A DNA stretch of 62,875 nt, counting the filler, from Stramenopiles sp. TOSAG23-6 (lineage: Eukaryota): assembly GCA_900128565.1 (NCBI GenBank). It is 9 parts of 9 records of this genome, joined end to end, with 100 filler letters (N's around TTAATTAATTAA, not from the genome) between each part and the next. Parts side by side here need not be neighbours in the genome. Positions count along the whole stretch, not along the records: positions 1 to 11,327 come from LT636268.1; 8 more parts are not named here. One strand, 5' to 3'. Below are positions 1 through 45,545 of the stretch, in pieces. The position numbers and the translations under genes were made by a program. A model generated the notes under the pieces. It saw nothing but the letters and a program-made list of their open reading frames with translations. It was not told where the DNA came from and did not search any database. The number at the start of each line of letters is the position of its first letter. Positions within the stretch are counted from its first letter, which is position 1.

Positions 1-1228
1 CTGAAGCACCCACAAAATTTATTCCTTTTTTATTATTACTATTATATTCTTTTTTGTGATTGTTGCTTATACCATTTTCTCTAAATATTGTTTTACTTTG
101 AGCGACAGAAGATTTTTTCGTAGTATCAACATAATCACTTGCAAATCTTTGGTATTTATGATTATTAGGGTTAGGGTTATCAACATAATCACTTGCAAAT
201 CTTTGGTATTTATGATTATTTTTCATTGGCCCTTCCACACTCATCTTCCATCCTTTTTCGAAAAGCATCTGATTGACTCTTGAGTCTTCACACATGGAGC
301 TGTTATTAGCACTGTTGCATGAAGTTTGCTGAAACGAATCAGTTTTCTCATTTTCAGAACACTTTGAATTTTTGACACTTTTTCTATAATTACTATCAAT
401 CGGAGGAATGTCGTTTTCTTCGCACAAATTTATAGGCTGATTTGAACTAATTCTGTGAACTACTGTTGTTGGTACTGAATGTACTGCAACTTCATCATCT
501 AAAATAACCGTGTTTCGTGTTTCGTTCTTCATGCTGGATATTTTTTCCACATTTATTTTCTCGGAAGTTTCCTTTGTGATTTTACCTTTTTTCGACCCGG
601 ATAAAATAGGATTTAAAAATGTAAATGGATTTTCACTGCTTATACTATCATTACATACACTATCATTACTATCGGTAGTTGTATTTTTTTCCACGTCAGG
701 GACACTATTGTCGGCAACAATGACGGGAGAATTGATAGGATCTGAAAATCTATCAAGAGTTTCCATAAACGAGCAAGCTTCAATTGGCTGAATACTATCT
801 GGAACAGCAACTACACATACACCTGCTTTACCATTTACTGTAGTATTATCTTTAAATCGAACGACGCAATTCACAACACTAGTAGGGGTCAAAGCAACAG
901 GTGCTGATGGAGGCTTCTCACGCAGAACTTCTACTTTTCTAGGTATATGGATATCTACCATCTGGTTCCGTGGAAGAGTCGTAGAACAAACAACTGGACT
1001 AGTAATGACTTCAGAAGTAACATCATTCTTTGCAGAATCATATATAGTTTCAAAATGATCATTTTTCGTTTGAACAAAAGGAGTTGTTGGGTTTGTTCTC
1101 ATCGGCTGAGGAGTCGACTCTAGGGAATGTCTATTCACTCCTATTGGTGAAATACTATAACTTCGTCCAGAATCAGTTCGCTCAAACGAGAAACCCTCAT
1201 CAGCCGTAACATTTACATAAGATTCCAT
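1..1228 (-). CDS. Hypothetical low-complexity protein, 3'-partial (runs off window start)
   Basis: ATG at 1228 (MESYVNVTADEG...); frame appears open to the window edge; not in ORF track because no stop is reached. Confidence 0.7.
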   Translation of the reverse strand, partial: MESYVNVTADEGFSFERTDSGRSYSISPIGVNRHSLESTPQPMRTNPTTPFVQTKNDHFETIYDSAKNDVTSEVITSPVVCSTTLPRNQMVDIHIPRKVEVLREKPPSAPVALTPTSVVNCVVRFKDNTTVNGKAGVCVVAVPDSIQPIEACSFMETLDRFSDPINSPVIVADNSVPDVEKNTTTDSNDSVCNDSISSENPFTFLNPILSGSKKGKITKETSEKINVEKISSMKNETRNTVILDDEVAVHSVPTTVVHRISSNQPINLCEENDIPPIDSNYRKSVKNSKCSENEKTDSFQQTSCNSANNSSMCEDSRVNQMLFEKGWKMSVEGPMKNNHKYQRFASDYVDNPNPNNHKYQRFASDYVDTTKKSSVAQSKTIFRENGISNNHKKEYNSNNKKGINFVGAS

Positions 1229-1668: not shown

Positions 1669-4600
1669 ATGGTTCCTAATTGGATAAAAAAGGGAATACG
1701 AAAACGTCCTTACTCTGAAGTTGCTGGAGTTGTGAATGGAACTCTTCCTCAGGAAAGTGGACCTCCCATAACGCCCGATCATATGTCCATCAAAGAACTA
1801 TCCACGAAATCGTCAAGTGCGATACAAATAAATGATGAAAATGTAAATTCTCGAAATATTCAGGTGGTTCAATCTAAGAATGTGTCTAAAAAAAAAGGAA
1901 AAAAGCGTAAAAAACAGACAGTCGAAGAAAAGAAAAATTTCGCCGAACGCATGGCAAAAGGCAGAGCAGAAAAACGACGCAAGCAAGCAGCGCAGACAGC
2001 AATTGATGAATTAAACAAAGACGTCTCTGAAATTGTAGATGAGAGTGAAGTAAATGAAGAAGAGGAATGCGTCGGTAATCGTAGAAGTTCGCGTTCTCGA
2101 GTATCCAGGTATATGCAAATTGACGGACAAACTGTTTTGAAAGCAAATAATTATACAATGGAACAAGGGGAACTTTCAGTGTATTCGCGTGAAGCTCGAG
2201 GTACGTTTGATGCATCCTCAAATGATATTAAGAGACCTGTTCGAAATGCATATATGCTATTTATGTCAGAATTTGAAGCCCCAACAGAAGACAATAGACC
2301 TTATATACAGCAAGCTTCGGAAACATGGCAAGGTCTTTCAGATGCTAAGAGAATGGAATTTAAACGCCGTCACCAACAAATGGAAGAAAAATGGTTAGAA
2401 ACGGTTGAAAATAATAAAAGAAAAGCTCAAGAAAAAATAGCTGCAGAAAAATTAGCCGATCAAAATAGGCAAATTTTAGCAAATAAACAACGCGACGAAG
2501 AATGGCAAAAACTAAATGAAAAACGCAAAATGAGTAAAGCTGCAAAAATGAAGGCACAAGGTAAAGATCGTGTGTTTGATCTGAGTACTATAGAAGGTCG
2601 TCGCCTTAAGCATAATAAATCAATGAAAGCTGAACGAGAGTCAGTTATTGCTCTACGGAATACAGTTTTTGCATATTATCGAAATAATCTCAAAGGATTT
2701 ACTGAAAATATCCCTCATGCCCTTTCAACATCTGAGTATGATGTAATGACGGCAGGGCTCGTGGATACTGAAGGCGCCCCATGTGTATCTCAACCAAGTA
2801 TTATTGTTAATGGTACTATGAGAAATTATCAATTGAAAAGTTTGGAATGGCTACTTTGGATGTATGTACGTTTTCATCAGAAATTTCAATTTTATTTATT
2901 TTCATACGAAATTTCGTACCTAACAAATTTTATAAAAAAAATATTTTTTCACAATATATGATCATGGTATGAATCCAATTCTCGCTGATGAAATGGGATT
3001 AGGTAAAACGTTGCAGACAATTGCATATTTAGCTGCATTAAAAGAGAGGGGCGTGTGTGGTCCACATGTACGTTTTCATTATGAATTTCTAATGTATTTT
3101 TGTTTCATATGAAATTTTGTAATTAATGATTTTTTTGATTTTTTTGTTTTTCACAATACATCTTGTTGTTGTGCCATTGAGCGTAATGAGTTCATGGATG
3201 AGTGAGTTTCGTCGTTGGTGTCCATCGCTACGTGTAGTTCGCTTGCATTCACAAGACAAACATGAAAGAATGCGTTTGCGTACATTTTCAAAATTGAAAT
3301 TCGTTTTTTTTTTTATCATATAAAATTTTGTATCTAACCAAAAAAATCAAATATTTGAAATATTTTCCTACAATATATGTACCCATGTAATTGCCGATGT
3401 CAAGAATTATGACGTCATTGTAACTACATATGATTATGTTAAAGTGAAGGAAATGAGACACACTTTGAGTTCTCGCATAGCTTGGAGATGTCTTGTACTT
3501 GACGAGGGTCACAAACTGAAAAATGATGAAGCTGAAATTAGCCTGGCAATGCGACGTGTTAATTGTCAATCAATACTATTATTAACTGGAACTCCTTTGC
3601 AAAATAATTTACATGAGTTATGGTCTCTATTGAATTTTTTATACCCTAAAATATTTCCCGAATCGATTGCATTTGATGACGCATTTAGTTTAAATGGTTC
3701 CCAGATGCAAATTAAACGAGACGTATTGTCAAGAGCACATCATCTTATGGTTCCTCTAATGTTACGCCGTGTGAAACATGAAGTCGAAACTATGCTTCCT
3801 CCAAGAGTTGAAACAATTATCAAATGTCCATTGAGTGAAATGCAGAATTTTTGGTATAAACGTTTGTTGTTGAAGAATTCTGCCATGTTACAAGGATTGG
3901 AAGAAAGACAAATTTTAAAAGAGAAGGGGGAAAATGTCGGACAAAACTCTGGTGGTGAATGGAAAAAATTGAAAAGTTTAATGATGCAACTTAGGAAATG
4001 TTGTAATCATCCATTTCTATTTCCTAATGTTGAAAATACACTTGCAGATGCTGATGAATTGATCAACGAAGATGGTGCTGCAAATGAATCAATCGTAAAA
4101 GCATCTGGAAAAATGGAGAACTTGGATCGTTTGCTTACTGGGTTGTTTGCAAATGGTCATCGTGTAGTCATATTTTCACAATTTACAAGATTTTTAGATA
4201 TTGTAGATGATTATCTTCAACTTCGTGGCTATCAATTCGCAAGACTAGATGGAGGAACAAATCGCGTACAACGTATGGTCGACATACAAGAGTTCAATAA
4301 ACCTAATTCTCCATTAGTTGCATTCATTATGAGCACAAAAGCAGGTGGTTTGGGTGTAAATCTTCAGACTGCTGATACAGTTATTCTTCTAGATAGTGAT
4401 TGGAATCCACAAAATGATTTGCAAGCGATGGCTAGAGTTCATCGTATTGGTCAGACTAAGTTGTGTCATGTATATCGTATGGTAAGTTCCGGTACGATGG
4501 AAGAACGAATTGTACAACGTGCTCAAAAGAAATTATTTCTAGATACAATGGTCAATCGTGGTTCCACCTCTAATGCTAAAGCGGTAGAAAAATTAGGTAG

Positions 4601-7600
4601 CAAAGAACTTCTTGAAGCTTTGTCCTTTGGTGTAGAGCGATTGTTTGACAAGAAAAATGATAATGATTCATTGGAGAAAGATAGATATTTGAGTGAAAGT
4701 GAGGTAGCTTCTATAATTGACCGTTCAAAAACAAAAGAATCTGTGAAAATCTCAGTTAATAATGAAGATGATAATACTAATGATGTATCTGAAAGTTCAT
4801 CTACAGCAACTACGATGAAATCTTCGTCAGTGAGTCTACAAAGTGGTCAGCGCCAAACTCTTGCATCATATGATGAAGTCGCACCAATGACAAAATTAAC
4901 ATTTTTTCAAGGACAAGATTTCCGTGCTGGGGGTGTTGCTACATATAAAGATATGGCAGATGCTTGGGTCGAAGAACTTAAATCTAAGCGGAAAGCGCGT
5001 GAAAGAAAGTCTAGATATATGCAAATTGATGGACAAACTGTTTTGAAAGCAAATAACTATACGATGAATCAAGGGGAACCTTCTGTGTTTCATCAAGAAA
5101 ATAGAAAAAATAAAGACGAACAAGTAGCTATCGTTGCTCAAACTGGTCCACAACGTGCTGGTCGTGATTATGAGCATGAATCACAGTGTTTGTATTGTTG
5201 GGACGGTGGTGATTTAGTGTGTTGTGATGGGTGTCCTGCTTCTTTTCACTTAGAATGTTTAGGATTATCAAAAGCTTCTTTAGATAATATGAAATTTCAA
5301 TGGTACGTTTTCATATTGAATTTCAAATTTTGTTTTTATACCAAATTCTGTACCTAACGATTTTCGGATTTTACATTTTTTTTCACATTACATGTATTGT
5401 CCTCATCACTCATGTATAGAATGTGGTCGCAAGGCTGCTGCGGTAGGTGGTCTTATTTTCCGATGTGAGGTTTGTCCTACTAGTTATTGCGAGGATCATT
5501 TACCTGATATTGCACGAAATAACATTACAAACAAATGTAAAAGATTTCAAAATCTCGGCCAAAATCATCCGAAACAAGCTTGTTTTGTGCTTTGTTCTGA
5601 AAAATGTCAAATCTTCCACAAGGCAACAAATGGTGGTTCTAATTTAAGTATTTTTAATACTTTGGAAAATAAGGAGAAAGCAATGCGGAACGCAGAACGA
5701 GATTTAAAGAAAGAGAAACAGAAAAAAACTCGTGATGCGTTGGCATGGCATAAAACAAAATCAGACGAACGCAAACAATGGTATGGCAACAGCACATCTG
5801 ATAAATTTGACAGTACAAATAGTAAAAATAAATCGTCTGAGTCTTCATTGATAAAAACAGAAGAAAATACAGAATGTTATAAAAAAACTCGTTCAAAATC
5901 ATTATTAAATGAAAATCGGTGGTTCAAAGGTATGCGATTAAAAGTTGATTATATGGGTAGACAATATTCCGCTAAAGTAGTTCGAACATCTAAAACTGCT
6001 TTGTATGTAAAGTATAGTGATGGATCACAAGAGGATATCTTATGGGAAGATGTCGAGGAGCGGGTTATTAAAGTCCCTGTAAAAAAGAAATCTGAAAATG
6101 TCATTTTGCCTCCACAAGACGAAATTAAAAATGAAGACAATCAAATAAATTTCATTTTGCCTCCACAAGACGAAATTAAAAATGAAGACAATCAAATAAG
6201 TATACATGATAAGTTGGAAGAAAAAAACGATGTAAACCAGAATGAAGAAAAAAAAGATAGTTACCAGAAAGAAGACGACGTAATACAAAATAAAGTTGTT
6301 GAGAAAAAAGTAGCTTCAAATTGGGAAAAACTCTCCCTTAACACTTCTTTGATACCTGGGTTTGTTCAAGGTCGCTTTGCTGTTGTAATTTCAGCTGGTT
6401 TGTCTAGCCTTCCATTATATGCATTATCTGGGTTTAGTAAACGTTTAGAAAATTTGCGGCTCGATGATATGAAATATTTATATGAACTTATCTACTTAAA
6501 AACAATTCCTCGAGATGAGGAGCAAGCTAAATTTGAAATTAAAAGTTGGGTTGGTGTAGGCATTAAATTAGATTTAAAAGCAGAGTCACATTCAGAAGTA
6601 GTTAGTTTATTAAATCAATCTGATTTAATGAATAATGTTTCTATTCTATACCTTCGAATTGTGAGATCGCTTCAGCGACCGGTTCGCGAAGGAGGGCTAT
6701 CAAAGTCACAAGTTTCGAATTTTGTAAAACTTTTTGATTTAAAAGGTGAAAAGGGACAAAAATTGGATAACTTTTCGGTTCCTTCTATTGCTGAATTGAT
6801 TGCGTTTTTCCTCGTATTTCCTAGTGCTATACACCAGAGAATTAGAGTGAATGAAGCATTCAAACATACAATAAAAGATTTCGATGTGAAGGGTCGTATT
6901 ATTATGAGAAAAAAAAATGGTAGAGATATAAGATTGTATGAATGTCTAGAAAATGAAACAATTAAAAGGATTGCTAAAACGTTTGGATGTGAAGTTCAAA
7001 CTATTCTAAACATTAATAGCAAAAAAATTAAAGGACTTAACGCGAGTAATTTACTTATCGGGGGTACAGAAATTGCATTACCTGTTGCTGTTTGTAGAGA
7101 ATTATGTAGGAATCAAAATTATTTTGGAAAACATGTTCACTCTATCTTTGATTCCGATCATTTTGGTCCCTTTTCAACACTACGTGATGAAATTAAAGAC
7201 GAATATACTGTTCAACCAATTAGAAGTTTTTTTGATAATAATGTGAAATTGATTGAAGAATTCGAATGGGAATGTAATTTTGATGGTTTCACATTGGGAC
7301 CATCGAACTGTTTTGCATCAAAAAAACGAGGAAAATCTGGCATGGACAAAATTGTTAATGAAATTCAATTGTATCGTAGGCAATTATCTCAACTCGTGGT
7401 TAAATTTGCAAAGGAAGAGCGCGATAGGTTGGGTAAAGAAAAATTAATTAAGCTATTTACCCGAGAAATCTTTGATCAAAATGAGAAAAAAAGATTGATA
7501 GAATTTGATACAATGGTTTCTTCATTATGGAATTTACATACTCATGGTATTTTTATGAAGCAAATTGAATTTCTTCGTGGGAATTTTGCTGGTGTAAAGG

Positions 7601-8820: not shown

Positions 8821-8848
8821 TAGTAATAATAAAAAAGGAATAAATTTT

Positions 8849-18885: not shown

Positions 18886-21239
18886 ATGATGAAAGGATCT
18901 AACTATAGATACGAAAGGCGTGCATGGTCAAGAAAAGAAGACGAGATAATTGTACGCCTAGTCAAACAATTTGGTGTAAAAAAATGGTCGAATGTCGCAC
19001 TGGAATTAGAAAATCTTATTAGAAATGGTATAAACCGTACAGGTAAACAATGTCGCACACGATGGTTGAACCATTTAGATCCTACAATTAAGCGTGAAGC
19101 TTGGAGTCCTGAGGAAGAAGCAATAATCTATGAGTGTCAAAAAGAAGTTGGAAATAAATGGGCGGAGATTGCGAAACGCTTACCTGGGCGAACAGACAAC
19201 GCAATAAAGAATCACTGGTACTCAACCATGAGACGTAACATGCGCCGCGTAGCGAAAGAAATGTCAAAAAAGATTAAACTGATTGGTGCTCAAAAGGGAA
19301 AGAAAGTTACAATGAAAGACTTAGATAAATCACTGCGAACCGTACATAATATGCCAACATCATTAAATCTTTCTTCACTTTTAGACAACGTCGGAGAGTC
19401 AGATTCAGCTTTATTTCATAGATGTTATAAACTCTTACAATCTACTATTTTAGCAAAAAACTCAACGAATAAAAAAAAGAAACATATTGACGGGAAGAGG
19501 CCTCAGACGATCCAGACTGATTTGTATGGAAACAAAAATTCGATTGTCGATGCACTTGCTGCGTCTCCCTTGGCACTACGTCAAAGTTTGTTGAAAGCAC
19601 TTATAGAGGGAGGCACTACACTAGATAAAATTAGTCCTAAGATGATGCAACAACTTGGTTATCCATCTCTATCTGGCGGCATATCGACAGGCACAACAAG
19701 TTCTATACAGGGAATGTCTACTGCAAAAACTCTAGAAATGTTAAAACTTGCCAAGAGTGGTAGTGGTGGTGGTGGTGCTTCAGGAAATGTAGAGGAAACT
19801 AAAATGAATAATATCGAAATTATGGATAAAGCTAAACTCCATACACAATTACTTGTATCGCTTTTGAATAGAGATGGAGCTGAAGCTTCGTCAGTAAGAC
19901 CCTTGTATGTTGTCCACTTTAATTTAAAATTTAATTTTTTATTATGAAAATTTTGTCCCTAACGAATTTTTGTACACCAAAAAAAATATTTTTCACATTA
20001 CTTTTCGCCATCAGCAAAACGAAGTCCTACCGGTAGACGCTTACGAAGGCCTCCTCCCCAACCTTCAGGTAATACCCCGACAAAGAAAGGCGAATCTTCA
20101 CACTCTAAAATGAAATTTGTTGATAGACTCAAAGTGGAGACAGATAACTTAAATAGTAATAGCAAAATGTTACTACCTTCGTCAGAAACGTGGTACAATT
20201 TAATTTCACCAAACTATGTACGTTTCCATTTTTTTTAATTTTGTTTTTTATTATGAAAGTTTCGTACCTAACAAAACCAATTTAACAATAATTTTTCACA
20301 ATACATTCTACCAAAAAAGGGCGGAAAGGTTTATCTGTAATGCCTGATGCACCACCCATGATAAATGCTCCAGCGGCTCCATTATCATTAGATGCGTTTG
20401 TTAAAGATTTGATGGTAGATAACAATGGTGGGGTTCCAAGTCTATATGGAGTTGACCCATCTGGGCAGAATCAAGGTATTGATGCCCAAATATCTGAATT
20501 ATTCAAGTTAGCATCTTCTCCTAATAGTCCTCTATTTGCCAAACGAAATGAAACAAATGAAACCATGAATATAAAAAATTCAAACAACTCAAATGTCAAT
20601 AAATTAACATCAATGACGAAAACCCCAAAGTCTCCAAGGGCTTTTACATTTGATAATATTGATTCTGTGAATCGTACTAGCACAACAAATCAACGGAATA
20701 TTAGTGTTGCAACAAGTAAAGGTTCAGATCTAATAAATAGTCAAACACCTCATGAACAACTAACACCTGCTACACTTCTAATGCTCGCTGGTCTTTCAAG
20801 TGGTCAATCAAACATTGGAAAATTTGTTTTCCCGTCTCCTCAAAATCTTGCCCTAAACCCTAACCCCAATCCCGCTCCGATACAAAATAGTCCAGAGTCT
20901 CCGCATAATGCTGCGGCATATTCTTTAATGGGCTTAGAGAATGTTTTAGGACCATCAAGTTCCGTATTCTCACCGACGGATTCAAATGCTATTAGAAATG
21001 TACTTGCACAACAAGCAACGACTGTTCAAAAAGATATGGTCCATGCCATGCAAGTCGGTGCAACATCTGCTTTAGCTGCGCATATAAGAAGCGCTGCTGC
21101 ATCAGTGGCAGTTGATAAAACATCCACAACTATCAAGGGAGAACACAACTCTGAATCAAAAGTGTCAAGACCTGTAACTAGGAAAAGACAAAATAATAGC
21201 AAAAACTTTAATGTCACAAAAAAAAATAGAAGTAAGTAA
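18886..21239 (+). CDS. R2R3-type MYB transcription factor; join(18886..19904,20004..20217,20307..21239)
   Basis: WSRKEDE...KWS...[16 protein letters not shown]...WSPEEE...[24 protein letters not shown]; two family introns join three frames. Confidence 0.9.
19905..20003 (+). other. Non-canonical intron (GT-TT)
   Basis: TT|GTATGT...GTCCCTAAC...CACATTACTT; nearby CAT (19998) and CAG (20014) ends are out of frame. Confidence 0.7.
20218..20306 (+). other. Non-canonical intron (GT-AT)
   Basis: AT|GTACGT...GTACCTAAC...CACAATACAT; in frame with 20340 ORF. Confidence 0.85.
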
Positions 21240-29445: not shown

Positions 29446-30417
29446 ATGGTTCAGAAGAATAAATGGGTAGCTCCGCTGAACATTCCCGTTAGTCGCCGTC
29501 GACAAACTTTAGCAGTACTCATATGGTCTTTGATAATACCAATATGTTTAGCCTTATCCGTCCACTGCATGTTTTCTAAAAATAGTATTATTTTCTATAG
29601 TTTTCTCCTATATTTGTTGTACATTAACTTTTTCCAGGTTTTCCACGAAGATGGTGGTCGCCGAAGTATGTGGGTCCGTCGCCTTTTACTATGGAAGTGG
29701 ATGGCGAGGTATTTCCCAGTAACTTTGATAAAAACATCGGAGTTATCCATTTCTAGAAAGTATATATTTGGTTATCATCCTCACGGTATAATAAGTCTTG
29801 GTGCAATTACTGCCCTTGCGACAGAAGGTCCTAGTCCATCTTTTGAGGAGCATTTTCCAGGGATCAATATTCGAGTTTTAACACTGGCGGTAAACTTTTA
29901 TCTACCATTTCTAGGTCTACTTCTCACAAAGCTTGGTGTGTGCAGTTGTAGCAAAAGAAGTTGCAATTCGGTTCTTAATAAAGGAAATGGAAATGCTATT
30001 GCTTTAGTTCTCGGAGGTGCAAAAGAATCACTCGATTCACATGTACGTTTTCATCATTAATTTTAAATTTATTTTTTTGTACCAAAATTCGTACCTAACG
30101 AATTTCGAATTTGACATATTTGTTCACAATACATATAGGGACGGCGAGATTGACTTTGAAACATCGGAAAGGTTTCGTAAAGGTCGCTTTACGTCAAGGA
30201 GCTGATTTAGTACCTATATTTTGTTTTGGTGAAACGGATCTCTTTGATCAAGCTGAGAACCCACGTGGTAGTTTATTAAGGCGTATTCAAGCTTCGATGC
30301 AATCAGTTTTAGGTTTTGCGGTTCCAATATTTAAAGGGAGAGGTGTTTTCAACTATGTTTTTGGATTCCTTCCTCAACGTCGCCCTCTTTATGTTGTTGT
30401 TGGAACTCCAATAGTAT
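29446..30417 (+). CDS. DGAT2: Diacylglycerol acyltransferase 2 (DGAT2/MOGAT family); join(29446..30042,30135..30417), C-terminus missing
   Basis: YFP, GYHPHG, GGAKESL, RKGFVKVAL, LVPIFCFGETDLF, VVGTPI. Confidence 0.88.
30043..30134 (+). other. Non-canonical intron (GT-AT)
   Basis: Restores ESLDSH|IGTARLTLKHRKGF; adjacent TAG acceptor (30138) is out of frame. Confidence 0.9.
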
Positions 30418-30503
30418 GTATGTTTTATTTTTTTTGTATGATTTATTTTCATACGAAATTTTGTACCTAACGATTTTTTTTGAAATATTTTTCCAAAATA
30501 CAT
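30418..30503 (+). other. Family intron (GT-AT), possibly a chimeric junction
   Basis: GTATGTTTT...GTACCTAAC...CCAAAATACAT. Confidence 0.75.
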
Positions 30504-33416
30504 CATCTCATGAAGGTTTACTCTAGGTATCGTTCTGGCAAAGTTCACGTAACAATGAAAGATAATTCTGATGATAAAAAATATGTGTATGAGGGGGCTC
30601 TTTCTGAAGATACTTTTCGTTTTATTGAGGCTACAGATCTTCGAACTCCTGAAGCAATGTATCCTTTATTTTTTTTCAAATTCGATTTTTTTTCGTATAA
30701 AATTTTGTACCTAACGATTTTTTTTTTGAAATATTTTTTCATCATACATGTCATATTTCAGGGGAATGCAGCCAAATATTTGTGATCGTGCAATGAGATT
30801 ACGAGCAACACGTTGTCTAGAAAATATAGTGAATGGACTGTGTTTTGTAGATAAAGGCCAAGAACGGATAGTATCTGACAATTCTAGTGGACATATNNNN
30901 NNNNNNNNNNNNNNNNAAATGTGACACCGTATAATCAAACATCCAAGTTCTTACGTACTAATCAGATACAATCACTGAAACAGCAGAGCAATATACACTT
31001 AACTCTGGCAACTGGTTTAAATATCGATAATCTTGCGAGAAAGCGAGATAATCCCAATGTTCCAAAACAACAGCGCATATCAAAGATAAAATCACCTACA
31101 ATGATTTGTCTGAATAAATTTATGTTGAATCCAAGTAATACCCTGTGTACTATTCTTGGCCAATGCAACGGGAAAAGATTAATCTTCAATGTAACAAATA
31201 ATCAATCTGATGAAAAATATAAAATTGCATTAGATATCCAGCAAAAGAGCAATCATCCAAATTTGAAGCTAACTAAACGACAGCAAAGAAATCTACTCAA
31301 AAGTGTTGCTTTGCGTCTTAGACTTGCACATTCATCAACATCAGATTTAGGAGAAACAGCCGAGCAAATAGATCATAGTGAAAATATACTCAAGAAACAT
31401 TATAAACTTTATATAGTTAATGACAGTGGTGATTCAATAATAAAGAAGGAAGCGAAAAAAAAGAAAAACGAAAAACGGATTTGTAAACCAAAACAGAATA
31501 TAGTAGAAAAAAAAGAGAAACAAATGAAAATAAATAGAAATGTTGAACAAAATCTACTAACAGGAAGTGAATTGAATCACACAAAAAAAACAAATCATTA
31601 TAAGTCACCAGATGACAAATCTCTAAACATTTCAAAAACAAAACATAGTAAGTCAACAAGAAAAACAAAATCACAGAAAAACAGTAAATTTAGAATTGAA
31701 GGGGTGTCTACATCTACAATAAATAGAGTACCGAATATTGCCAAGTATCCGAAAGCAGCGAAGCAAGTGAAAAAGAAAGAAAAGACTACCGAGAAAGAAA
31801 TAGTGATCAAAACGACCCGAAAAAAAGTAGCACGTTCTCCAAAATCCTGTCGCTCAATAAAATCTTCAATAAAACCTTCTGCAAATACTCATAAAAATAG
31901 CCCAACAAAGAAGAACGAAGCTAAAGAAAATAACTCTTCAGTGTTATTTAAAACCATGAAAAAACGCCGAGTACATAAACAAATCACATTCAAAGAAAAG
32001 TATGCATCTAGACAAAAGAAATATTTTAAGTCTGCAACAACTATTCAATGTTTATTTCGTATTGTGAGAGCTACTAAATGTATTCAATCTCGTCGACGGC
32101 AAGTGGCTGCTTGTACTATTCAAAACAAATATCGCCAATATATTGCCATTGTCAAGACTCAACAAAAACGAAAACAAAAGCAAAAGTCAGCACAAATAAT
32201 ACAAAGAATCTTCCGTGGTCATCAAATGCGTACTCTATTGCAAAAACAACGAGTAAGTAGTATTTTAATTCAATCAATATTCCGAAGAATCATTTGTTGT
32301 AGAAAACTCCTTAATATTAGAAAACGACAACGACGACTTGCTGCAGCTATTAAGTTGCAGCAAAGATATCGCAGTCATATGATTATAGCGATACCAGCAG
32401 CGATTTATTTACAAAAGGTAATTAGAGGATGGCATACTCGTAATATAAAAATTCCACAACAAAATAGAGAATTAAAGGCATCTTTGAATATACAAAGAGT
32501 ATGGCAAGGATTTCAAGGAAGAGTACGGTGGTGCATGAGACGCAGAAAAGTGAGAGCATCAATCGTCATTCAGGCATTTGCACGTCGACATCTAGCTAAT
32601 AAAAAGCTCCGTTCGATGCGTCGATGTAAAAATGCAGCCTACACATTACAAAGAAGTATTTCGCTATATATATTCATTATTAATCGATGTAAAGCGGCCA
32701 AGGAAATACAAGAATTTACTCGAAGGATTTCGCATATGGTTGAAGCAAAGAAAACAGTGAAACTATTGCGCGAGAACAAATATGCTTGTGTCATTCAACG
32801 TATTGAACGAGGCCGACAAAGCCGCCAAACAGTAATATTGATGAAAACCCAACTTGCGGCGCGTTTAATTCAAAATTGCTGGAGACAGAAGATATCATTT
32901 GATGTTGTCAACTATCGGCGTAAATCTCGAGCATCTACACGAATCTCCAAAATAGTTCGCAGTCGATTGTCAAGAAAGCGTGCACTTCATTTATTGAAAG
33001 TTAAATATGCATCTCTAGTTCAAAGATTATACCGAGGATATCATACACGGAAGATAGTCCGATATTTGCATAAGTCACTGTGGTCTCAACGTGGACATGC
33101 TAGAGGAAAATTAGCATTTGAATTCGAAGAACCTCTCTCTATTGGTGATATGATCATTCTGGCAGATACGGAGGACATTATGCGATTGCCATTGACGCGC
33201 TGGATGAAAATATTTGGACAAAATGAAGAGTTTGCAAAACATACCAGATGCATGTATTCCTCTTGGGGTGGAGCAGCCGCATTAGTAGATTCAACAATTG
33301 ATTCTCACGATGGATCCATTAAACTTTCTGGATTTTTTGATCTCAATACAGGACTTCCAACAATAATGGCCGGTGGTGCTTGGTGGCCACATGAATTATT
33401 ATATTTTGCAAGATAA
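30504..33416 (+). CDS. Multi-IQ-motif (calmodulin-binding) protein, 5' end uncertain, spans gap 30897-30916
   Basis: 831-aa ORF with many IQxxxRGxxxR-type motifs; upstream exons 30504-30658 and 30750-30896 open. Confidence 0.75.
30659..30749 (+). other. Non-canonical intron (GT-AT) with GTATCCTTT donor
   Basis: AT|GTATCCTTT...GTACCTAAC...CATCATACAT|G; restores open frame to gap. Confidence 0.8.
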
Positions 33417-34243: not shown

Positions 34244-34298
34244 AGGTACAAAATTTCGTATGAAAAAAAAATCGAATTTGAAAAAAAATAAAACATAC
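34244..34298 (-). other. Family intron, truncated by contig end
   Basis: AT|GTATGTTTT...GTACCT. Confidence 0.8.
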
Positions 34299-36926: not shown

Positions 36927-36977
<51 letters not shown>

Positions 36978-39900
36978 TCCAGGTAAATGTATTGTGACAG
37001 AATATGTAAACATAAAATTTGTTAAGTACAGAATTTTCATAGTAAAAAAAGAATAAATAAATTTGAAATGAATGTTAGGCTTAGGGTTAACAAACATCTA
37101 TATTAAACATTTCAGGAATAATTGTTAATACGTCTAAATTATAAATAAGCAATTGCATTTCATAATTTGGTTCAATTGTATCATTATCAATAATAGTACA
37201 ATAATTCTTCATTTCATTCATCCAATTTTGCAATTCTTTTAATTTATTCACAACAATTGTTAAATCATGTATCGTGAAAAAAAAATTGAAAAAAAAAATC
37301 AGTTAGGTACAAAATGTTCTACCAAAAAAAAAAATTAAACTTCAGGATAGGGTTAGGGTTAACCTACATCACCGATGCCCCACACTTCATAACATTCAAT
37401 TGAACATAGAAAATATCCTAAAATTGACTGTATATGAAAATATGCTTCATGATGTTTTGAATCCAATAGTAAATGAATTGAAGAGCATATATTCAATAAA
37501 TTATAACGTTTTTGATTTTGATGTAATAATAAAAGTAATGATTCTGTAGTCAAATTATCATTTTCATACATTAATAAAGTAGTTAATATTGTAGAAAAAT
37601 TACTATTTCCAGATGATGACGTCATTTTTGATAAGCTTAAAATTTGTGTATTTTTTGAATGTTTTTCTGAAAATAGATGTTTACACATATTCACAGTTTT
37701 ATCTATTATTGTAGAATTCCCTGAAAATAATTGATGGAGATATAGATTATGAAAAAATATTTCAAAAAAATCCAAAAACATTTGTTAGGTACAAAATTTC
37801 GTATGAAAAAAAATGTAGACAAAAAAATTGAAATGAAAACGTACATTCCACTGGACTTTTCATTGTACCAAGAATACTTTGAAAATCAACTAATACGTGA
37901 GATATTTGATACTCAATTTCAATATCAGCCAAAATACGTAAAAGTTGTATTTGTACACATTTACATTCCATATGTATTGTGAAAAAAAAAAGAAAAAAAA
38001 AAAGTACAAAAATTTGTTAGGTATAAAATTTCGTATACACAAATAATAAATTTTGAAATTTGAAATTTGAAATGATGAAAACAAACATCATCAATTGTTT
38101 CTTCACTCTGATGATATCTCTTGTCACGAACCTGTTTCGGTATAATGACTTTTATTTTACTTTTTTCTTGGCGTAATAATTGCTTTGCTAATCGAGCAGC
38201 ACGAAATAAACGTAATAATCGTACTGTATTGTGAAAAATATTTAAAAAAAAAAGTTAAATTTGTTAGGTACAAAATTTCGTACGAAAAAACACGATTTGT
38301 TTTGAAAAAAATGAAATTGAAAACGTACATAATCGTAACATCCTAAATGTTTTAAATAATGAGCCTAATGATTTGATTGAAGAGACAGCAACACCAAGCC
38401 AATCTACAAATGTAACAATAAAGTCAGTTACACATAGCCAATCAAGGAAATATCGATTGCATCCAATAGCCCAAAGACGTCCAATGACATGTTTTTTTTG
38501 AAAATATTTTTTTTTTTTTGAGTAAAATTTCTGTGTTAGGTATAAAATTTTGTATAAAAAATGAAAAATTAATAAATTCATGATGTGAAAATGTACATCC
38601 AACGTAAACAGAGCAAGAAAGAAATAATCTAATAAGTCTAATGTTGAATTATTTGATTCTTGTAAACCAATTAAACCTGTAATAACAGAAATAAAAGTAG
38701 CTCCAATAATAAATATCATGTACTTTGGAAATATATTTCAGAAAAAAAAACCTTAAATTTGTTAGGTACAAAATTTACTATAAAAAAAACAATTCGAATT
38801 TGAAAAAAAGTAAAACATACATATATATTTTACCATCCATAATATTTTCAACATATTCAGCAAGAGATCGTTCAACAGGTTTGTCTGTATCAACTAAAAG
38901 CTTTCTATATTCACGAACATCATCTTGAGTAAAGTCTGTATCATGAATGATTTGCTTTGAAAAACACGAAAAACATGAAAAAATATTTTTGTTGTTTTGT
39001 TTTTGGGTCGTTTCTTCTTTTTCTATTTTTGAATTGAAATGTCCAATACTTTGAATTAATGGAATTGCAACATTTTGTACTTGTTCAACAGATGAATAAT
39101 AACCATACTGTAATAAATGATGTAAACATTTCGCATATGCAGCTGTTAATAAATGATTATCGTTTCCCGGTTCACTATATTCACGTGTACTCTCTAACCA
39201 CATTTCTATTGATCCTTGTAATATTGCAAATTTATTTGAATGTGTAGTATTTGGTACACCAATCGTATTGGCTTGAATAGGTACATACGTTTCTACATTG
39301 TCTGTATTTTTTTTATTTTCTGTATTTTTTTTATTTTCTGTATTTTTTTTATTTTCTATATTTTCTATATTTGTAACAAATGGCCTACTAATATTTGGTA
39401 TAGGAATTGTCTTTTGTGGATCAACATCAAGCCATAATGAATCAATTAATGAAGCAAATGCGGCTCGTAATTCAATCGTTATTCCAGTGTCAGATGCAGC
39501 TAGTATACATAATTCATATGAATATTCATCTCGTAAATTGTAAATTCCTAAATAATTCCTATTTAAACATAATGTTGAAAATAATGTAATTTGTGCAAGA
39601 TAAAAATCATAAATTTTCTTTTTTTTCTCATATATACTCTTTGCTTCTTGTGCCAATTTTATTTCTTTTGCTTTAAAACCTAATTTTGAATGTTTTGAAT
39701 CTTTTAAAGTATTTTTGGCCTCATCACCATCATCATTATCATCATTAAAATCTTCATGTACACATTCACATATTTCGTGTATTTTTACCCATGTTTTTTT
39801 AAATAAAGCATTTGGTGTGGAAGTCATGTATTATGAAAAATATTTTTTTTTTTAATTTAAAAAAAAATGTTAGGTACAAAATTTCGTATGAAAAAAACAA

Positions 39901-42800
39901 TTTGAAAATTAATGATAAAAACGTACATATCTTTAGTGTACCAAGAAACACACAAACCTGGTACACTCATTCCACCTGAACCAATTGCTGATTCACCCAT
40001 TACATCACCACCATTATCTTCTACATATCTTTGTGTACTTTTAGAATTAAATTGAACACTTTGATTTCTATCACCCATCATTCTTGTCTTTATTAATAAT
40101 TCTTGATTTCGTGTTTTAAAAAGTTCTAAATTGACTTTATCTTGATTATCATCTACAGCTTCATTTTGGCACATACATAATACACACAAAAACTTTATAT
40201 AATCTGGATGTTGTCCAAATTTATGTAATAATTTAACAAATAATTTAATATGTTTTGTTGTAATACAAGTATTTAATAAAACTTCATTACCTTCTACTAA
40301 TTCAGTTAAACAAAATGTTGAACCGATTTGTAATGGAATTTGAACAATCAAAGAATCAATATATTTTGTTGCATACATGAAATGTAGAAAAATATGTTTG
40401 AAAGTTTGAAATTTGTTAGGTACAAAATTTCGTATGAAATCATTGAAATCATAAGGAATATCTACAGGAAAAAAAATTGTTCAATAGATAATTTTGAAAA
40501 AAATAAATTTAAAATTAAAATTAAAATAATGAAAACGTACATTTGATTAGGACGATGATCATCAATTACCATTACTATCATATAATATAAACATTCGCAA
40601 GTATCACATAACATATGCCAAAGTGTAGTATCATTATTCAAGACTTTAATACCTCGTACTAAAGTTTGTACCAAATTCATTGAATATTCTAAAACTTGAC
40701 ATTCTTTTAATAATGTATTTTGGAAAAATATTTCAAAAAAAAATCGTTAGGTACAAAATTTACTATAAAAAATAAATTCGAAATTGAAAAAAAATAAAAC
40801 ATACATTGTTGACGGTCTGTTACAATAAAATCATTCGATATTTTTTTCAATTCTTTGACTTTTTTTTTAAATGGCCAATCTGTTAACATATGGTAATATT
40901 TTTGATTAATTTGTTTAGGATCTATGCAAAATATTCTCAAATATAAACAAATTTCAATAATTTTTACTAATTTGTTTTGATCCATTTTTTCATATAAAAT
41001 TCTAATATTTTTTCTCTTTTTTTCTGATTTCGTTTTTAAAATATTTTCTTCTTCATTTTGTGTTTGAATTATTGTATTATTAGTATTTTCTTCATCTCTT
41101 TTTGTTTCAAATATTGTATTTGAATTATTATAGTGTTGATCATTGTTGAAGTAATCACTAAGGATACAACCAATTTTCTTCAACATTGTAACTAATGATA
41201 TACCTTCATACATTGTAAAAAAATATTTAAAGAATAAAATCGTTAGGTACAAAACTTTCAAAAAAAAAAAAAAAAGAATTTTAAATGCATGATAAAAGCG
41301 TACATATATTGTGATTAATACATCATTTGTATAAGGAATAGAAATGATCATTGCATTATCTTCTTCCCATGATGAAAAGTTTACAACTGAAGCATTTTCA
41401 CCACCATATTCTTCTGCATCTGCACCATCATTCAGCCATATAATACGTTCTGATGATGCATTTTTTACATTATTTTTTGTATCATTTTTTGTTTCATTTT
41501 TTGTTTCATTTTTTACATCATTTTTTATATCATCTGCAATATGAATAAAAATACCAGAATTATTCTTGATACAAACACTTGCAGCACTCTTTACCGATGG
41601 AATTAAATTGAATAATGTCTTTGGATTATTTCGTGTATTTGTTACAATCATACAATCATCAGGATTTTCATTATCATCTTCCAATAAATTAGCTACAATG
41701 GCGCCAGGTGAACCTCGACATAAATATAAATTTGAAATCAAATGACGAAATCGGAATGTATGCTTATATTTTGCTAGACCACCACAAGAAACGTCACTTG
41801 CTTCAATAATCCATAAAAAGTTTGAATTTTCTTTCATATCTATTTCACCCGATTCATCGATTTCACGCGCAGAAAATAATACTGCTAATTCTGTTTCATT
41901 TTCAGATTTTGTTTCATTTTCAGATTTTGTTTCATTTTCAGATTTTGTTTCAACATTTTGACTAATTGTATCAATATCAGATACAGATCCTACATTCTTC
42001 ACAGATAGAAAACAATTACTCTGTGGGTGCTTTAAACGAACAACTGAACCTATAGGTATAAAAGATCGTTTAGGAACACTTTTTCGTAACCCTAACCCTA
42101 AATCTCGACTTGAAGCAAATTTTGAAAATGTCCAACATGTACGAGAATAATTCGTAACTACAGCTGCATTAATTTCACGTAAAGGACCACTCAAATGAAT
42201 ATGTTCCGATTTTCTTTCTAGACCATACAAAATGACAAGATCGTTATATTCAACAACGTCACCCAAAGTTCGTGTTTTTGATTTGGGGTTGACTGTAAAG
42301 CAAGCCATGCCTGTTGGTAGCGATGTAACTTCAATGCAAAAACATTCTGATTGAACTTCAGCGACTTTATTGGGACAAATTGTGACATATTTTTGTGAAA
42401 GAATATTCTGAAGTTGTATAGCATCTCCGTATTTTACTGAACGACCCAACCGTGATTGAATTAAACGTTCATTGGATATTTTTTCTTTTCGCGCAGCGTC
42501 TTTATAGTGTTTTATTGTACGTTCTGAAGAAGTCTTGGAAAGAAGAGCACGATCATACTCGATAGTAGATGTATATTGAAGTTGAGGTACAACACGAAAT
42601 AAGCATTCACGAAATTTTATGGGAAGACTACCATCCGGCTGAAGAACAGCCAAGTGACAAGTTGTATTAGCAAAACCTTCAACACATAAAACTCCCTCCA
42701 CATTGTGGGTTTGGTTAAACGTCTCTTTAGTATAAAGATACACAGTATCGCCAAAAGAAAGCACATCTGGTGGTTTCGATGCATCTGTGGTAGACACCAT
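34244..42800 (-). CDS. Inositol 1,4,5-trisphosphate receptor-like Ca2+ channel with inserted voltage-sensor domain, 3'-partial, 12 family introns
   Basis: LSFGDTVYL, FRECLFRVVP, VKYGDAIQLQN (Ins145_P3_rec); FRFRHLISNLYL (MIR); RQQLLKECQVL, NQMYAT, LCMCQNEAVDDNQ (RIH); IRLLCEGHYRPNQ, LMVECVQGSCSMNQ (RIH-associated). Confidence 0.88.
36927..36977. repeat. (GAT)n microsatellite encoding poly-Asp
   Basis: Long tcatcatca run on + strand. Confidence 0.9.
36987..37095 (-). other. Non-canonical intron (GT-AT) containing telomere-like repeat
   Basis: GTTTGTTAACCCTAAGCCTAAC...GTACTTAAC...CACAATACAT. Confidence 0.8.
37267..37367 (-). other. Non-canonical intron (GT-AT) containing telomeric repeat
   Basis: GTAGGTTAACCCTAACCCTA...GTACCTAAC...CACGATACAT. 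Confidence 0.8.
37742..37844 (-). other. Non-canonical intron (GT-AT)
   Basis: GTACGT...CATAATCTAT; frame restored. Confidence 0.78.
37972..38086 (-). other. Non-canonical intron (GT-AT)
   Basis: GTTTGTTTTC...ATACCTAAC...CACAATACAT. Confidence 0.82.
38224..38328 (-). other. Family intron with canonical end (GT-AG)
   Basis: ...CACAATACAG; restores S4 periodicity RMLRLLRLLRLFR. Confidence 0.88.
38489..38596 (-). other. Non-canonical intron (GT-AT), in-frame
   Basis: Restores S2 helix FTLD|VIGRLWAIG. Confidence 0.85.
38718..38820 (-). other. Non-canonical intron (GT-AT)
   Basis: GTATGT...CCAAAGTACAT; joins KIYM-IFIIGATF. Confidence 0.85.
39826..39926 (-). other. Non-canonical intron (GT-AT)
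   Basis: GTACGT...GTACCTAAC...CATAATACAT; joins two ORFs in frame. Confidence 0.85.
40377..40540 (-). other. Non-canonical intron (GT-AT), long variant
   Basis: Restores NQ-M-YATKYI. Confidence 0.82.
40713..40804 (-). other. Non-canonical intron (GT-AT)
   Basis: Restores RQQ-LLKECQVLE (IP3R RQKLxRE-like motif). Confidence 0.88.
41208..41303 (-). other. Family intron (GT-AT), in-frame, no stop
   Basis: GTACGCTTT...GTACCTAAC...ACAATGTAT. Confidence 0.75.
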
Positions 42801-43740: not shown

Positions 43741-45545
43741 ATGGTCTCGACGTCACCAACTTTGTATAGTAATAGTACTTCAGCAAATAGTTCTACAGGT
43801 ACTTTTGCAACTTTAGATCATATCCGTCGTTTTTCTAAACTCAAGGGTCGATTAAACACGCATGCGTTTGTTTCATTGACAAAATCTAAACGACATATTC
43901 CTACACATCCCAATAAACAACATACATCAAGTGTATTGAACATTCGGCCTCGTAAGTATCAGCCTCTAGGTGCTCGTAGAAAACGAACTGATTCCTCTCC
44001 CCGTTTTCAGCAACAAAACAAATATTCTAATAAAGAATATCATATTCCCCCAAGTTATTTACCTTTTGAGAAGTCGAATCAGTTTCGTAATATACATGAA
44101 TTAAATCTTACTTCTGGTTTTGTGTACTCAAATAAAAGACAAAAGACAACTGGCAAAATTTTCTTACCTACAAAGGATTTTCGAAATTCTACAAGTCAAC
44201 GAAATAAGCGACAATATAATTCAAATGTATTACCTCTATCAAATAGTATGAATGTTACTTCTAAAAGAAATAGTGGTGGACTGAAATCTGCGTTAAGTAC
44301 AAAAATGTATATGAAAAGAAAAGAAGTCACAAAAAATGTTCGATTTGCACGAATGTTTGTTTTCTTTTTTTTAATTTCGAATTTTTTTTTCGTACGAAAT
44401 TTTGTACCTAACGAATTTTTTTTGAAATATTTTTTCAAAGTAAATCAACTGTTATGATTCAAGTTCAAGGTGTGTCTACGACAACGTTACAAAACGCATC
44501 AAGAATTACAAAGTCAATCAATGGTGCTCCTCGTTTAGTTACACGACCAAAACTCAATATGTCAATATCATCACCAAAGAAACACACGAAATATATCAGA
44601 CCAAAAGCTTGGGAAAAACATAATACAGGTATTGAAATAGTAACACGTGGCAATAATGATGATGATGATTTTAAAACATCTGCTGAAGCAAGGTATACAT
44701 TTTCTGCGTCCAAGCAAGCGCAACAATATAGTCATCGAAGCCAATACAATTCTTTTATAAATGACATGCGGAATTCGAGAATCGCAGCAGAAAGTGAAAA
44801 AGAACGAAAACGTAAAGGCTTGAAAAAATGTGAAGTCACGGTAGAAAATATGGGAACTGATTTAGGAATGACTCGACTTTCAGGTTTACCTTCCCCTCGA
44901 CTAAATCTCCCTACGACAGTCGATGAATTATGGCTTGAACGTCCATTGGATAATTCTGGACATCCAAAACGTGGCGGCCGCGGATCAATGAAGAGAGAAC
45001 ATGTACGTTTTTTTTTAAATTTTTTTTTAAATTTTTTTTTAAAATTTTTTTTTATAGAGAATTTTGTACCTAACGAATTTTTTTTTATTTTTTTTACAAA
45101 AAAAAAAAAAAAATATTTTTCACAATAAATGACCCAGATCGTTTGATTAAACGCAAATTAAAAGTACGACCAACAACTCAAGCTGAAATGCGTGATTGTT
45201 CAGCAGCTCTTGAACCAGAAGATATAAAAGCGATTTCGTGCGGACCTAAACTAATTAATTTTGAACGTGTTTGCATTCGAAGTGAAAATGTTAAATGTTT
45301 TTCAGTATATAATGACTCTTCGGCAAATATACTCGTTGCCTTAAAATTAGATGATTGTCCAGAATTACGTTTAACTACGCCAATGAGTCAAGTTATTCCT
45401 TCTGGAGGTACTGCCGGTTTTGACATTACCTTAATGTATGTTTTATTTTTTTTTTTAACAAAAACATCGATTTTTTTTTCATACGAAATTTTGTACCTAA
45501 CAAATTTAAGTTTTTTTTTTTCAAATATTTTTCCAAAATACATGT
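43741..45545 (+). CDS. CFAP47-like (ASH/Ig-fold ciliary protein) gene fragment, 3'-partial; introns ~44355-44440, 45003-45130, 45436-45543
   Basis: PTTQAEMRDCSAAL...ISCGPKLINFERVCIRS...ELRLTTPMSQVIP resembles CFAP47 from memory; first exon shows no such similarity. Confidence 0.55.
44355..44440 (+). other. Family intron, probably GT-AG (acceptor uncertain)
   Basis: AG at 44440 gives the in-frame join; AT end at 44445 does not. Confidence 0.6.
45003..45130 (+). other. Non-canonical intron (GT-AT)
   Basis: ...CACAATAAAT|GAC CCA GAT in frame. Confidence 0.8.
45436..45543 (+). other. Family intron (GT-AT) at contig end
   Basis: GTATGTTTT...CCAAAATACAT. Confidence 0.75.

Follow-up and report, generated by a model that had tools for sequence, protein, structure and literature searches.

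A copied family of short introns with mostly GT-AT ends in the stramenopile TOSAG23-6

Nine contigs of Stramenopiles sp. TOSAG23-6 (GenBank assembly GCA_900128565.1), joined end to end into a stretch of 62,875 nt (hereafter, the window), contain a family of short introns that begin with GT and mostly end with AT; after curation, this family comprised 37 complete copies and five cut by contig ends. Our results support these introns being one copied sequence family, i.e., introners, and they support GT-AT as the only register fitting all copies. The explanation that we consider probable is that they are U2-type spliceosomal introns from a single family of short, non-coding introners that has two main subfamilies and multiplied by copying in a marine stramenopile lineage. 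The initial annotation, which started from an intron at 3066..3161, had proposed introners derived from miniature inverted-repeat transposable elements (MITEs), with inverted ATGTAY...ATACAT ends and a 2-bp AT duplication; its introner part was borne out, whereas its transposon part was upheld only in part.

The copies share a conserved anatomy, running 5' to 3' from GTAYGTTTT through a T-rich stretch, (C/T)(A/G)TACGAAATTTTGTACCTAAC and a T-run to ...ATATTTTTC(A/C)(C/A)AATACAT, with a branch-type motif TACCTAAC (CTAAC kind) about 35 nt from the copy end. The donor was GT in 37/37 complete copies, and in most it was the yeast-like GTAYGT or one mismatch from it. In all 37, the distance between the last YTAAN motif and the 3' end was 18-57 nt (median 36); it was 32-47 nt in 32 of them and at least 32 nt in 33. 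The 3' ends were AT in 33 copies, AG in three and TT in one, with ACAT in 23, in keeping with the ...AATAC+AT end described in the initial annotation. Copy length ranged from 89 to 270 nt (median 101), with 32 copies of 89-128 nt, four dimer-like copies of 164-210 nt and one copy of 270 nt with an insert; mean GC of the copies was 0.19, in a window that is itself AT-rich (GC 0.25-0.40). GTAYGTTTTC (up to one mismatch) matched 50 times against 12.6 +/- 3.2 in shuffles, and CACAATAYAT 42 times against 16.5 +/- 4.3, numbers that were each reached by 0/100 shuffles. With a profile built from 20 copies, 44 matches were obtained at E<1e-3, its 20 seeds among them; the output of an automatic intron finder was set aside as too loose (1,979 candidates).

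Identity and consensus were analyzed on 32 of the 37 complete copies, leaving out the dimer-like copies at 51037, 54258, 47792 and 40377 and the 270-nt copy at 45773. Mean pairwise identity was 0.67, or 0.66 once 6 nt had been trimmed from each end, compared with 0.38-0.40 for realigned, composition-matched shuffled interiors; within subfamily B it reached 0.82. The 5' variant GTATGTTTTA was linked to the 3' variant CCAAAAT.. (9/10 vs 1/27, Fisher p = 7.8e-7). Linkage across about 90 nt points to copying from different masters, since independent splice signals would not yield it. All 42 copies lie within genes in the sense orientation, and intron phases were near-even (16/11/10).

A similar uniformity might be expected of non-mobile, old introns in an intron-poor lineage, alike through constrained splice signals: each of the shared elements (donor, branch motif, T-run and 3' block) could plausibly be a signal, and intron-poor eukaryotes such as yeasts and Trichomonas have long, rigid ones. 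This view is very unlikely here, given that the interiors are far more alike than their shuffled counterparts and that linked 5' and 3' variants define subfamilies. The density of about 0.8 introns per kb of open reading frame (ORF), with 11 in one gene, is also not that of an intron-poor genome, nor do the near-even phases favor this view, and five contig ends sit within family copies, as repeats would give.

Reading frames and homology mark the borders of the copies. After cutting from the donor G to the last family base, an open frame was found on both sides in 37/37 copies (at least 18 codons; at least 30 in 36 of them), as the initial annotation had expected of an element removed together with one repeat unit, while copies left in gave a stop or frameshift in 31/37. 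The minus-strand gene of the IP3 receptor (IP3R), minus its 11 family copies, forms 2,534 stop-free codons. Against the homologue P0121 (2,848 aa; 39% identity over the IP3R query exon) this ORF was gapless at 11/11 junctions, where the flanking residues were identical on both sides at seven, on one side at three and on neither at one. In exon-by-exon Pfam scans, SNF2-rel_dom profile positions across the initially flagged intron and its neighbours ran ..44 ^ 55..91 ^ 102.. (^ marks a junction, here and below), and a KH_dom-like profile ran ..21 ^ 24.. across an intron of a Der/EngA-type gene. The flagged segment itself resolved into exonic AT plus a 94-nt intron (3068-3161), with the SNF2 domain read up to position 44 before it and from 55 after it. 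In DGAT2, the junction PI^HLMKV parallels PI^HLPKV of P0009, and this homology places the donor at 30414, 4 nt upstream of family position 30418.

Ordinary GT-AG introns at nearby sites, with the AT ends as an artefact of delimitation, are scarcely credible as an alternative. In-frame GT/GC-AG alternatives did occur within -30 to +60 nt of 35 of the 36 copies covered (all but 45436, which adjoins a contig end), and an in-frame TTTCAG lies downstream of two copies (30659, 12 nt; 37742, 21 nt). However, nearly all in-frame alternatives delete or add conserved residues, whereas the GT-AT cut is gapless at every IP3R junction, and internal TAGs shift the frame in 3/3 copies tested. P0001 (EukProt: 'GSMAST32.ASY1.ANO1.1182.1 assembled CDS') shares 100% identity with the DGAT2 exon, and its name suggests a marine stramenopile of the MAST-3 type. 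The P0001 model of DGAT2 (29389-30503) takes a GT 4 nt within intron 30043 and an AG 4 nt beyond it, a pair that scores near-equal homology (summed over seven references, 5296 vs 5319), which would favor the GT-AG view; the same model then enters intron 30414 and stops there (..GTPI VCMFYFFCMIYFHTKFCT), which counts against it. By misreading two DGAT2 introns, P0001 indicates that standard annotation is evidently blind to such introns. A search for longer proteins containing the 42-aa read-through of one subfamily-B copy found nothing (seven candidates, none scored), and a protein search with the IP3R exon gave no match in the near length range and, among representatives, no near-identical entry, the homologue P0121 being found there.

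The register from donor G to last family base is open to 37/37 copies and the AT-AC register to 21/37; border repeats let the cut slide without mRNA change at many sites, as the initial annotation had recognized in stating that AT-AC gives the same mRNA at most of them. Copy 38224-38328 has no border repeat, with GT...AG exactly at the family positions and P0121 gapless across it, and this unique register pins the 3' splice site to the position where the family ends. In another eight copies the cut cannot be moved upstream. Intron 5303-5393, which splits the Trp codon of the PHD domain, is preceded by TG, so that the AT-AC register is excluded there and GT-AT favored, as had been argued from the start. 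With the universal GTAYGT as donor, the family reads as GT-AT (33 copies), GT-AG (3) and GT-TT (1). A 3-bp ATG duplication was also tried and rejected: for intron 5303 it removes 92 nt and breaks the frame, whereas 91 nt keeps it.

A true AT-AC register for most copies (cut before ATGTAYGT and after ..ATAC), with the minority lacking an upstream AT read as GT-AT, is an unlikely alternative. In its favor, the mRNA is unchanged wherever this register is allowed, A...C is an established compatible intron-end pair whereas G...U is not known to be one, there is a loose likeness between TACCTAAC and the branch consensus of the minor spliceosome, and one copy starts with GTATCCTTT. Yet this register is impossible at the family position in 16/37 copies, it would set the conserved GTAYGT two bases off the universal register, and copy 38224-38328, which is unambiguous, has its borders at GT and at the final family base. 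U12-type introns have an RTATCCTT donor and a branch site about 10-26 nt from the 3' end, a rule for which the 32-47 nt seen in 32/37 copies is too far; in the family, GTATCCTTT was found in 1/37 and the motif-to-end distance was at least 32 nt in 33/37. Of the features of U2-type introns, the copies have the GT donor in its extended consensus and, ahead of the 3' end, a branch motif, whereas the AG end was found in only 3/37.

A TTTTAG stands 13 nt past the branch-motif A in several subfamily-B copies (51677-51693, 52887-52903, 55451-55467) and in cut copies near 45670, 56905 and 61515; in the three complete copies tested, splicing at this internal TAG would leave 31-32 nt in place and cause a frameshift. 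Since this TAG is apparently passed over, the 3' cut seemingly does not follow a first-AG rule. In the explanation that we prefer, the spliceosome of this organism would accept U as the final intron base, and the 3' cut would be placed by the conserved 3' block instead of the first AG, because the UAG that follows the branch motif by 13 nt is apparently skipped.

The family copies of the window are listed below, with (B) for subfamily B.
2866..2959, plus strand: family intron, GT..ATAT, TAT before the donor; SNF2 gene.
3068..3161, plus strand: initially flagged intron (subfamily A), GT..ACAT, ACAT before the donor; SNF2 gene; 94 nt.
3280..3378, plus strand: family intron, GT..ATAT, GC before the donor, GTAC after; SNF2 gene.
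5303..5393, plus strand: family intron, GT..ACAT, TG before, GTAT after; splits the PHD Trp codon.
19905..20003, plus strand: family intron, ends ACTT, CTT before the donor; Myb gene; the one remaining TT/TT case.
20218..20306, plus strand: family intron, AT^GT..ACAT.
30043..30134, plus strand: family intron, DGAT2; ACAT^GT..ACAT.
30414..30503, plus strand: family intron (B), DGAT2; donor GT 4 nt upstream of family position 30418; border repeat none.
30659..30749, plus strand: family intron (B), 5' end GTATCCTTT; in-frame TTTCAG 12 nt downstream, 3' end uncertain.
34244..34298, minus strand: cut copy (B), 5' part, cut by contig end; AT before the donor.
36987..37095, minus strand: IP3R intron, TTAACCCTAAGCCTAAC past the donor; junction NID^LP.
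37267..37367, minus strand: IP3R intron, telomere-like TTAACCCTAACCCTA past the donor.
37742..37844, minus strand: IP3R intron, ends CTAT; in-frame TTTCAG 21 nt downstream, 3' end less certain.
37972..38086, minus strand: IP3R intron, GTTTGT donor; junction D^MECK.
38224..38328, minus strand: IP3R intron, ends ACAG; without border repeat, register unique.
38489..38596, minus strand: IP3R intron, junction D^V.
38718..38820, minus strand: IP3R intron (B), junction KIY^MIFII.
39826..39926, minus strand: IP3R intron, no in-frame canonical alternative in the range searched.
40377..40540, minus strand: IP3R intron, dimer-like, 164 nt; AT^GT..TCAT^GTA; junction DDHRPNQ^M.
40713..40804, minus strand: IP3R intron (B), junction RQQ^LLKE, the same in the homologue.
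41208..41303, minus strand: IP3R intron 1 of 11, TAT^GT..GTAT.
44355..44445, plus strand: family intron, AAT^GTTTGT..AAAT.
45003..45130, plus strand: family intron, AT^GT..AAAT.
45436..45543, plus strand: family intron (B), at contig end.
45646..45701, plus strand: cut copy, 3' part, cut by contig start; ends ..ATACAC.
45773..46042, plus strand: family intron with an internal insert of about 170 nt; TT before the donor; AT end 46042 preferred over TT end 46040.
47792..47963, minus strand: dimer-like family intron, GA^GT..ACAT then GTACGT (6-nt repeat of the intron start).
50389..50511, plus strand: family intron with two branch motifs; TC^GT..ATAT^GT.
51037..51246, plus strand: dimer-like family intron, 210 nt; ACAT^GT..ACAT.
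51620..51725, plus strand: family intron (B), internal TAG 13 nt past the branch A would shift the frame.
52313..52410, plus strand: family intron, 5' end GTATGT, 3' end CCAAAATACAT.
52825..52935, plus strand: family intron, subfamily-B 3' end; unused internal TAG.
54258..54424, plus strand: dimer-like family intron, ends CCAG (GT-AG).
55388..55498, plus strand: family intron (B), ends GCAT; unused internal TAG.
56552..56644, plus strand: family intron (B).
56813..56929, plus strand: cut copy, contig end just short of the last bases (..TTTTTCCAAA); AT before the donor.
58518..58582, minus strand: cut copy, 5' part, cut by contig end; AT before the donor.
58735..58834, minus strand: family intron (B), flanking exons match KH_dom-like profile 1-21 and 24-71.
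58964..59064, minus strand: family intron, ends ACAG (GT-AG); AC before the donor, GTAC after.
59187..59285, minus strand: family intron, CAT^GT..ACAT.
59456..59552, minus strand: family intron, Der/EngA-type GTPase gene; ACAT^GT..ACAT.
61491..61590, minus strand: cut copy, contig end just short of the last bases (..TTCCAAAAT); AT before the donor.

Two closely similar inserts in the SNF2 gene lie 109 nt upstream and 119 nt downstream of 3068-3161. The IP3R introns at 37267-37367 and 36987-37095 carry a telomere-like TTAACCCTAA(C/G)CCTA directly after their donors (GTAGGT.., GTTTGT..) and may form a third subfamily. In the dimer-like copies 51037-51246, 54258-54424, 47792-47963 and 40377-40540, the first unit lacks its last ~20 nt, the inner donor of the second unit is damaged (GACG, GTATAT, ATACG), and only one 3' block is present; this single block makes them unlike simple nested insertions. 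The GTATCCTTT start at 30659-30667 is two substitutions from the family's GTATGTTTT; we take GTATCCTTT to be the minor-spliceosome donor consensus, and its occurrence in a subfamily-B copy is probably due to chance.

Exonic AT preceded the donor in 30/37 complete copies and in 4/4 cut copies with a readable donor, against an exonic AT dinucleotide frequency of 0.11; the frequent upstream AT noted at the outset (34/42) stands, on a recount of 34/41. G follows the intron in 25/37. Border repeats (both sides counted) of at least 2 nt were found in 34/37 copies (mean 3.14 nt), compared with 18% of random exon sites. Repeats of at least 3 nt were present in 27/37 copies versus 23.4 after elements were swapped among sites (p = 0.016), and upstream matches of at least 3 nt numbered 10 versus 6.2 (p = 0.027). 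A copy-specific signal linking flank and intron end thus exists, but it is weak, and the consensus explains most of the repeat. For copy 30418/30414, the flank, inverted-end and register tests used 30418, and the border-repeat and branch-distance tests used 30414.

The seven copies without upstream AT behave differently, in that five of them are followed by GT (GTAC, GTAT, GTGA, GTAC, GTACGT), compared with 5/30 of the others (Fisher p = 0.009, in a post hoc comparison of a small sample). This downstream GT repeats the intron's own first bases, a pattern that an AT-duplication model does not predict; fixed ends with a flanking duplication cannot yield both kinds of repeat, whereas homology to joined ends (...ACAT^GTAC...) could. 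Two copies had been cited as TT-ending and preceded by TT, as a target-site duplication would require. Of these, 19905-20003 (CTT/..ACTT) held up, while the copy at 45773-460xx was probably mis-registered: both frames are open, and a codon-usage score trained on nine window exons favored the AT end at 46042 (+9.1) over the TT end at 46040 (-4.4).

Less firmly than for splicing, we propose that new copies would be inserted as DNA where a few bases match the joined ends (...ACAT^GTAC...), at most sites AT^G. Insertion would leave a 2-6-nt repeat over the borders, and removal of exactly one unit would restore the gene. Two routes appear almost evenly balanced, with a slight lean to the first: (a) transposase-type insertion that duplicates a 2-bp AT target, or (b) short homology to the junction of a circular or tandem copy, which would also explain the copies with a GT(AC) repeat on the downstream side. 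A fuller scenario, in which a MAST-3-type lineage splices most of its introns as GU...AU by means of a ~20-nt block, skipping a usable UAG, and gains them through circular or tandem junction-homology integration without target-site duplication, is put forward tentatively and is, taken whole, improbable.

Several points weigh against the preferred explanation. The data come from a single 62.9-kb window whose contigs are unlinked, and splicing of the copies is read from frames and homology. To our knowledge, G(+1)...U(-1) is not an intron pair known to be efficient in model spliceosomes, as judged from yeast genetics. The flank and the last two intron bases agree as AT/AT in 28/37 copies and as TT/TT in one, and differ in the other eight; when elements were swapped among sites, the mean border repeat was still 2.92 nt versus the 3.14 observed (p = 0.05). 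A splicing preference for certain exon-side bases, as with AG^G elsewhere, could account for AT^G. In front of the three AG-ending copies stand AT, AC and AT, never AG, so that a later T-to-G change would be needed if the last two bases were a duplication. Perfect inverted ends (element = GT...AC) span 0-4 nt in 37/37 copies, or 5-6 nt counting the flanking AT, and RNA folding beyond that of shuffles was seen in none of the ten copies tested (z -0.85 to +1.07). No transposase domain was detected in the 43 long ORFs scanned in the window, where only a copia-type reverse transcriptase was found. For junction-homology insertion, we know of no demonstrated precedent in spliceosomal introns, and by itself it does not explain the CTT/CTT copy. 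Finally, antisense or intergenic copies were absent from the window (0/42), although long ORFs cover only 84% of it.

These results leave a MITE with a 2-bp AT target-site duplication as one candidate among three, partly supported. The matching AT/AT flanks and the single TT/TT copy agree with it; the short inverted ends, the absence of hairpins and the marginal flank correlation do not. Terminal inverted repeats of MITEs are usually at least 10 bp. The inverted repeats proposed initially, ATGTAT(G)TTTT and AAAATACAT, were likewise confirmed only as a longer gapped match in one subfamily (9/32 monomers), their perfect part being limited to the 0-4 nt given above. Two further possibilities were considered and rejected: end pairing or a hairpin of the kind found in Amoebophrya and euglenids was rejected on the folding z-scores of the ten copies tested, and for a solo long terminal repeat of the copia-like element, the family profile had no match at E<1 around that element.

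The third possibility is spread at the RNA level, in which the excised intron would enter another transcript by reverse splicing at 'proto-splice' sites (AT^G) and a DNA copy would recombine into the gene, without duplication; the upstream AT would then be a site preference of the spliceosome, and the terminal AT would belong to the intron. It would account for the sense orientation of 42/42 copies in genes, with none in the ~16% of the window without long ORFs, for complete splice signals in all copies and frame restoration by one-unit removal in each, for the large share of the border repeat that permutation leaves in place, and for ends without transposon-like structure. We nevertheless consider RNA-level spread rather unlikely, as it predicts neither the CTT/..CTT copy nor the excess of repeats of at least 3 nt nor the AT-or-GT pattern (all small-sample results), and introner mechanisms worked out so far are DNA-level in the account given by PMC12130899.

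Beyond the curated copies, one profile match in a spacer (1370-1399) proved on inspection to be no element. For the middle of the family, a weak and partial match (E 1.8e-4) lies at 48337-48403 on the plus strand, antisense within an exon of a minus-strand gene, and could be due to chance or be an old antisense remnant. A pattern scan of metagenomes gave at least 116 loci; among the matches listed, none fits the family profile (best E 0.027), and six with an upstream GTAYGT were unrelated on inspection. A stricter pattern had no match in viral contigs or in genome contigs.

Adjoining contigs of the window need not be genomic neighbours. Each of the eight joints consists of 44 N, a TTAATTAATTAA linker and 44 N, at the following positions.
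11328-11427: contig joint.
22741-22840: contig joint.
34144-34243: contig joint.
45546-45645: contig joint.
56930-57029: contig joint.
58418-58517: contig joint.
59905-60004: contig joint.
61391-61490: contig joint.

Other N comprised two unlinked runs (30897-30916, 57988-58079) and 53 single Ns. The window is gene-dense, with ORFs of at least 100 aa covering 84% of non-N bases, and Pfam named an SNF2/PHD protein, Myb, DGAT2, the IP3 receptor, a Der/EngA-type GTPase, an RCC1/ankyrin protein, a PALP enzyme, sigma-adaptin and a copia-type reverse transcriptase. No Rfam family and no tRNA (by ARAGORN) was found in the window, hence no small nuclear RNA there. The copia-type retrotransposon polyprotein (RVT_2; 11380-18159), in two long ORFs with many single Ns, is the sole mobile-element protein seen in the window and is unlike the intron family. 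The SNF2/PHD ORF (5320-8820) overlaps a DnaJ-ending ORF (8711-9760) by about 110 nt (8711-8820) in a different frame, which could reflect a frameshift, an unrecognized intron or two close genes. A long minus-strand (GAT)n run at 36900-36985 encodes poly-Asp in IP3R, and P0121 is acidic at the same place. Ten sequencing runs, labelled marine or seawater, share sampled words with the window; one contains 0.85 of these words and is probably its source, and the others contain at most 0.12, with 0.05-0.08 in three RNA runs. Simple repeats like (GAT)n may explain the small shares of the metagenomic runs.

Bursts of intron gain are at present best explained by introners, whose mode of insertion and handling by the spliceosome are active questions. 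The present family combines a textbook donor and branch motif with a final U, which would make 3' splice-site recognition directly testable. It would also add a stramenopile lineage with a footprint (AT before or GT after the intron) by which, given a scan of the full assembly, target-site duplication and junction homology could be told apart, and the junction-homology reading, if true, would tie intron circles to intron gain. Ordinary gene finders miss such introns, the DGAT2 model P0001 being a practical case. Searches of main texts yielded no account of this family or of an intron set dominated by GT-AT, and in the titles and abstracts listed, GT-AT introns appear as sporadic cases only. 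In the main text of the single-cell assembly paper on marine stramenopiles (MAST), the word 'intron' occurs in the methods only, and the main texts of two later MAST papers do not contain it. That paper's main text gives 3,289 and 2,694 genes for two MAST-3 assemblies of 18.9 and 21.1 Mb, and 4,652-8,537 genes for MAST-4 assemblies of 28-33 Mb. Unrecognized GT-AT introns may depress these MAST-3 gene counts and could mimic pseudogenes.

As described in PMC9860276 and PMC12130899, the introners of Micromonas, Aureococcus and many other aquatic eukaryotes are likewise many near-identical, short, non-coding introns, found in sense orientation at unrelated places in genes, with short border repeats and genes restored by removal of the element plus one repeat. 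Their splice sites are canonical or familiar, and the curation described in PMC12130899 accepts AG and AC 3' ends, whereas here the end is AT. Many of these introners have clear terminal inverted repeats and target-site duplications in the same accounts, and about 82% of confidently classified families are DNA transposons with terminal inverted repeats (PMC12130899); in contrast, the inverted ends here are at most 4 nt long and the side of the border repeat varies. The full-length intron circles produced by the intron-lariat spliceosome (PMC10996645) offer a joined-ends intermediate of the kind at which the AT-upstream-or-GT-downstream pattern hints; as presented there, they are an observation on yeast RNA with a hypothesis of intron transposition, whereas the present case is a sequence pattern.

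AT-AC introns (U12-type and, rarely, U2-type) resemble the family in that 21/37 copies can be read as AT...AC with unchanged mRNA. They differ in that the ATATCC donor is absent here, the branch motif is too distant and 16/37 copies are unable to adopt the register. For introners of the Micromonas/Aureococcus type, Huff et al. 2016 is reportedly a further source. The introns of Fritillaria-type tunicates have a non-canonical donor as well (AG-AC, AG-AT). These non-canonical introns, as covered in PMC13326754 and its preprint, provide a further comparison. Here, the donor is the textbook GTAYGT and only the last base is deviant. Among the introner-like elements of dinoflagellates, we know of no report of GT-AT. 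Those elements, as outlined in bioRxiv 10.1101/2020.10.14.339549, are likewise transposon-like, with large-scale intron creation and flexible splice sites, in another lineage. The introner elements of Amoebophrya, in the description of PMC7789003, also belong to a marine protist and are repeated, non-canonical, transposase-free introns whose 3-5-nt direct repeats over the exon/intron borders blur the boundary. The Amoebophrya elements carry 8-20-nt inverted repeats that form hairpins and have inconsistent terminal dinucleotides (PMC7789003), whereas the TOSAG23-6 family is hairpin-free, with a strict GTAYGT donor, an equally strict branch motif and one dominant pair of ends, GT-AT.

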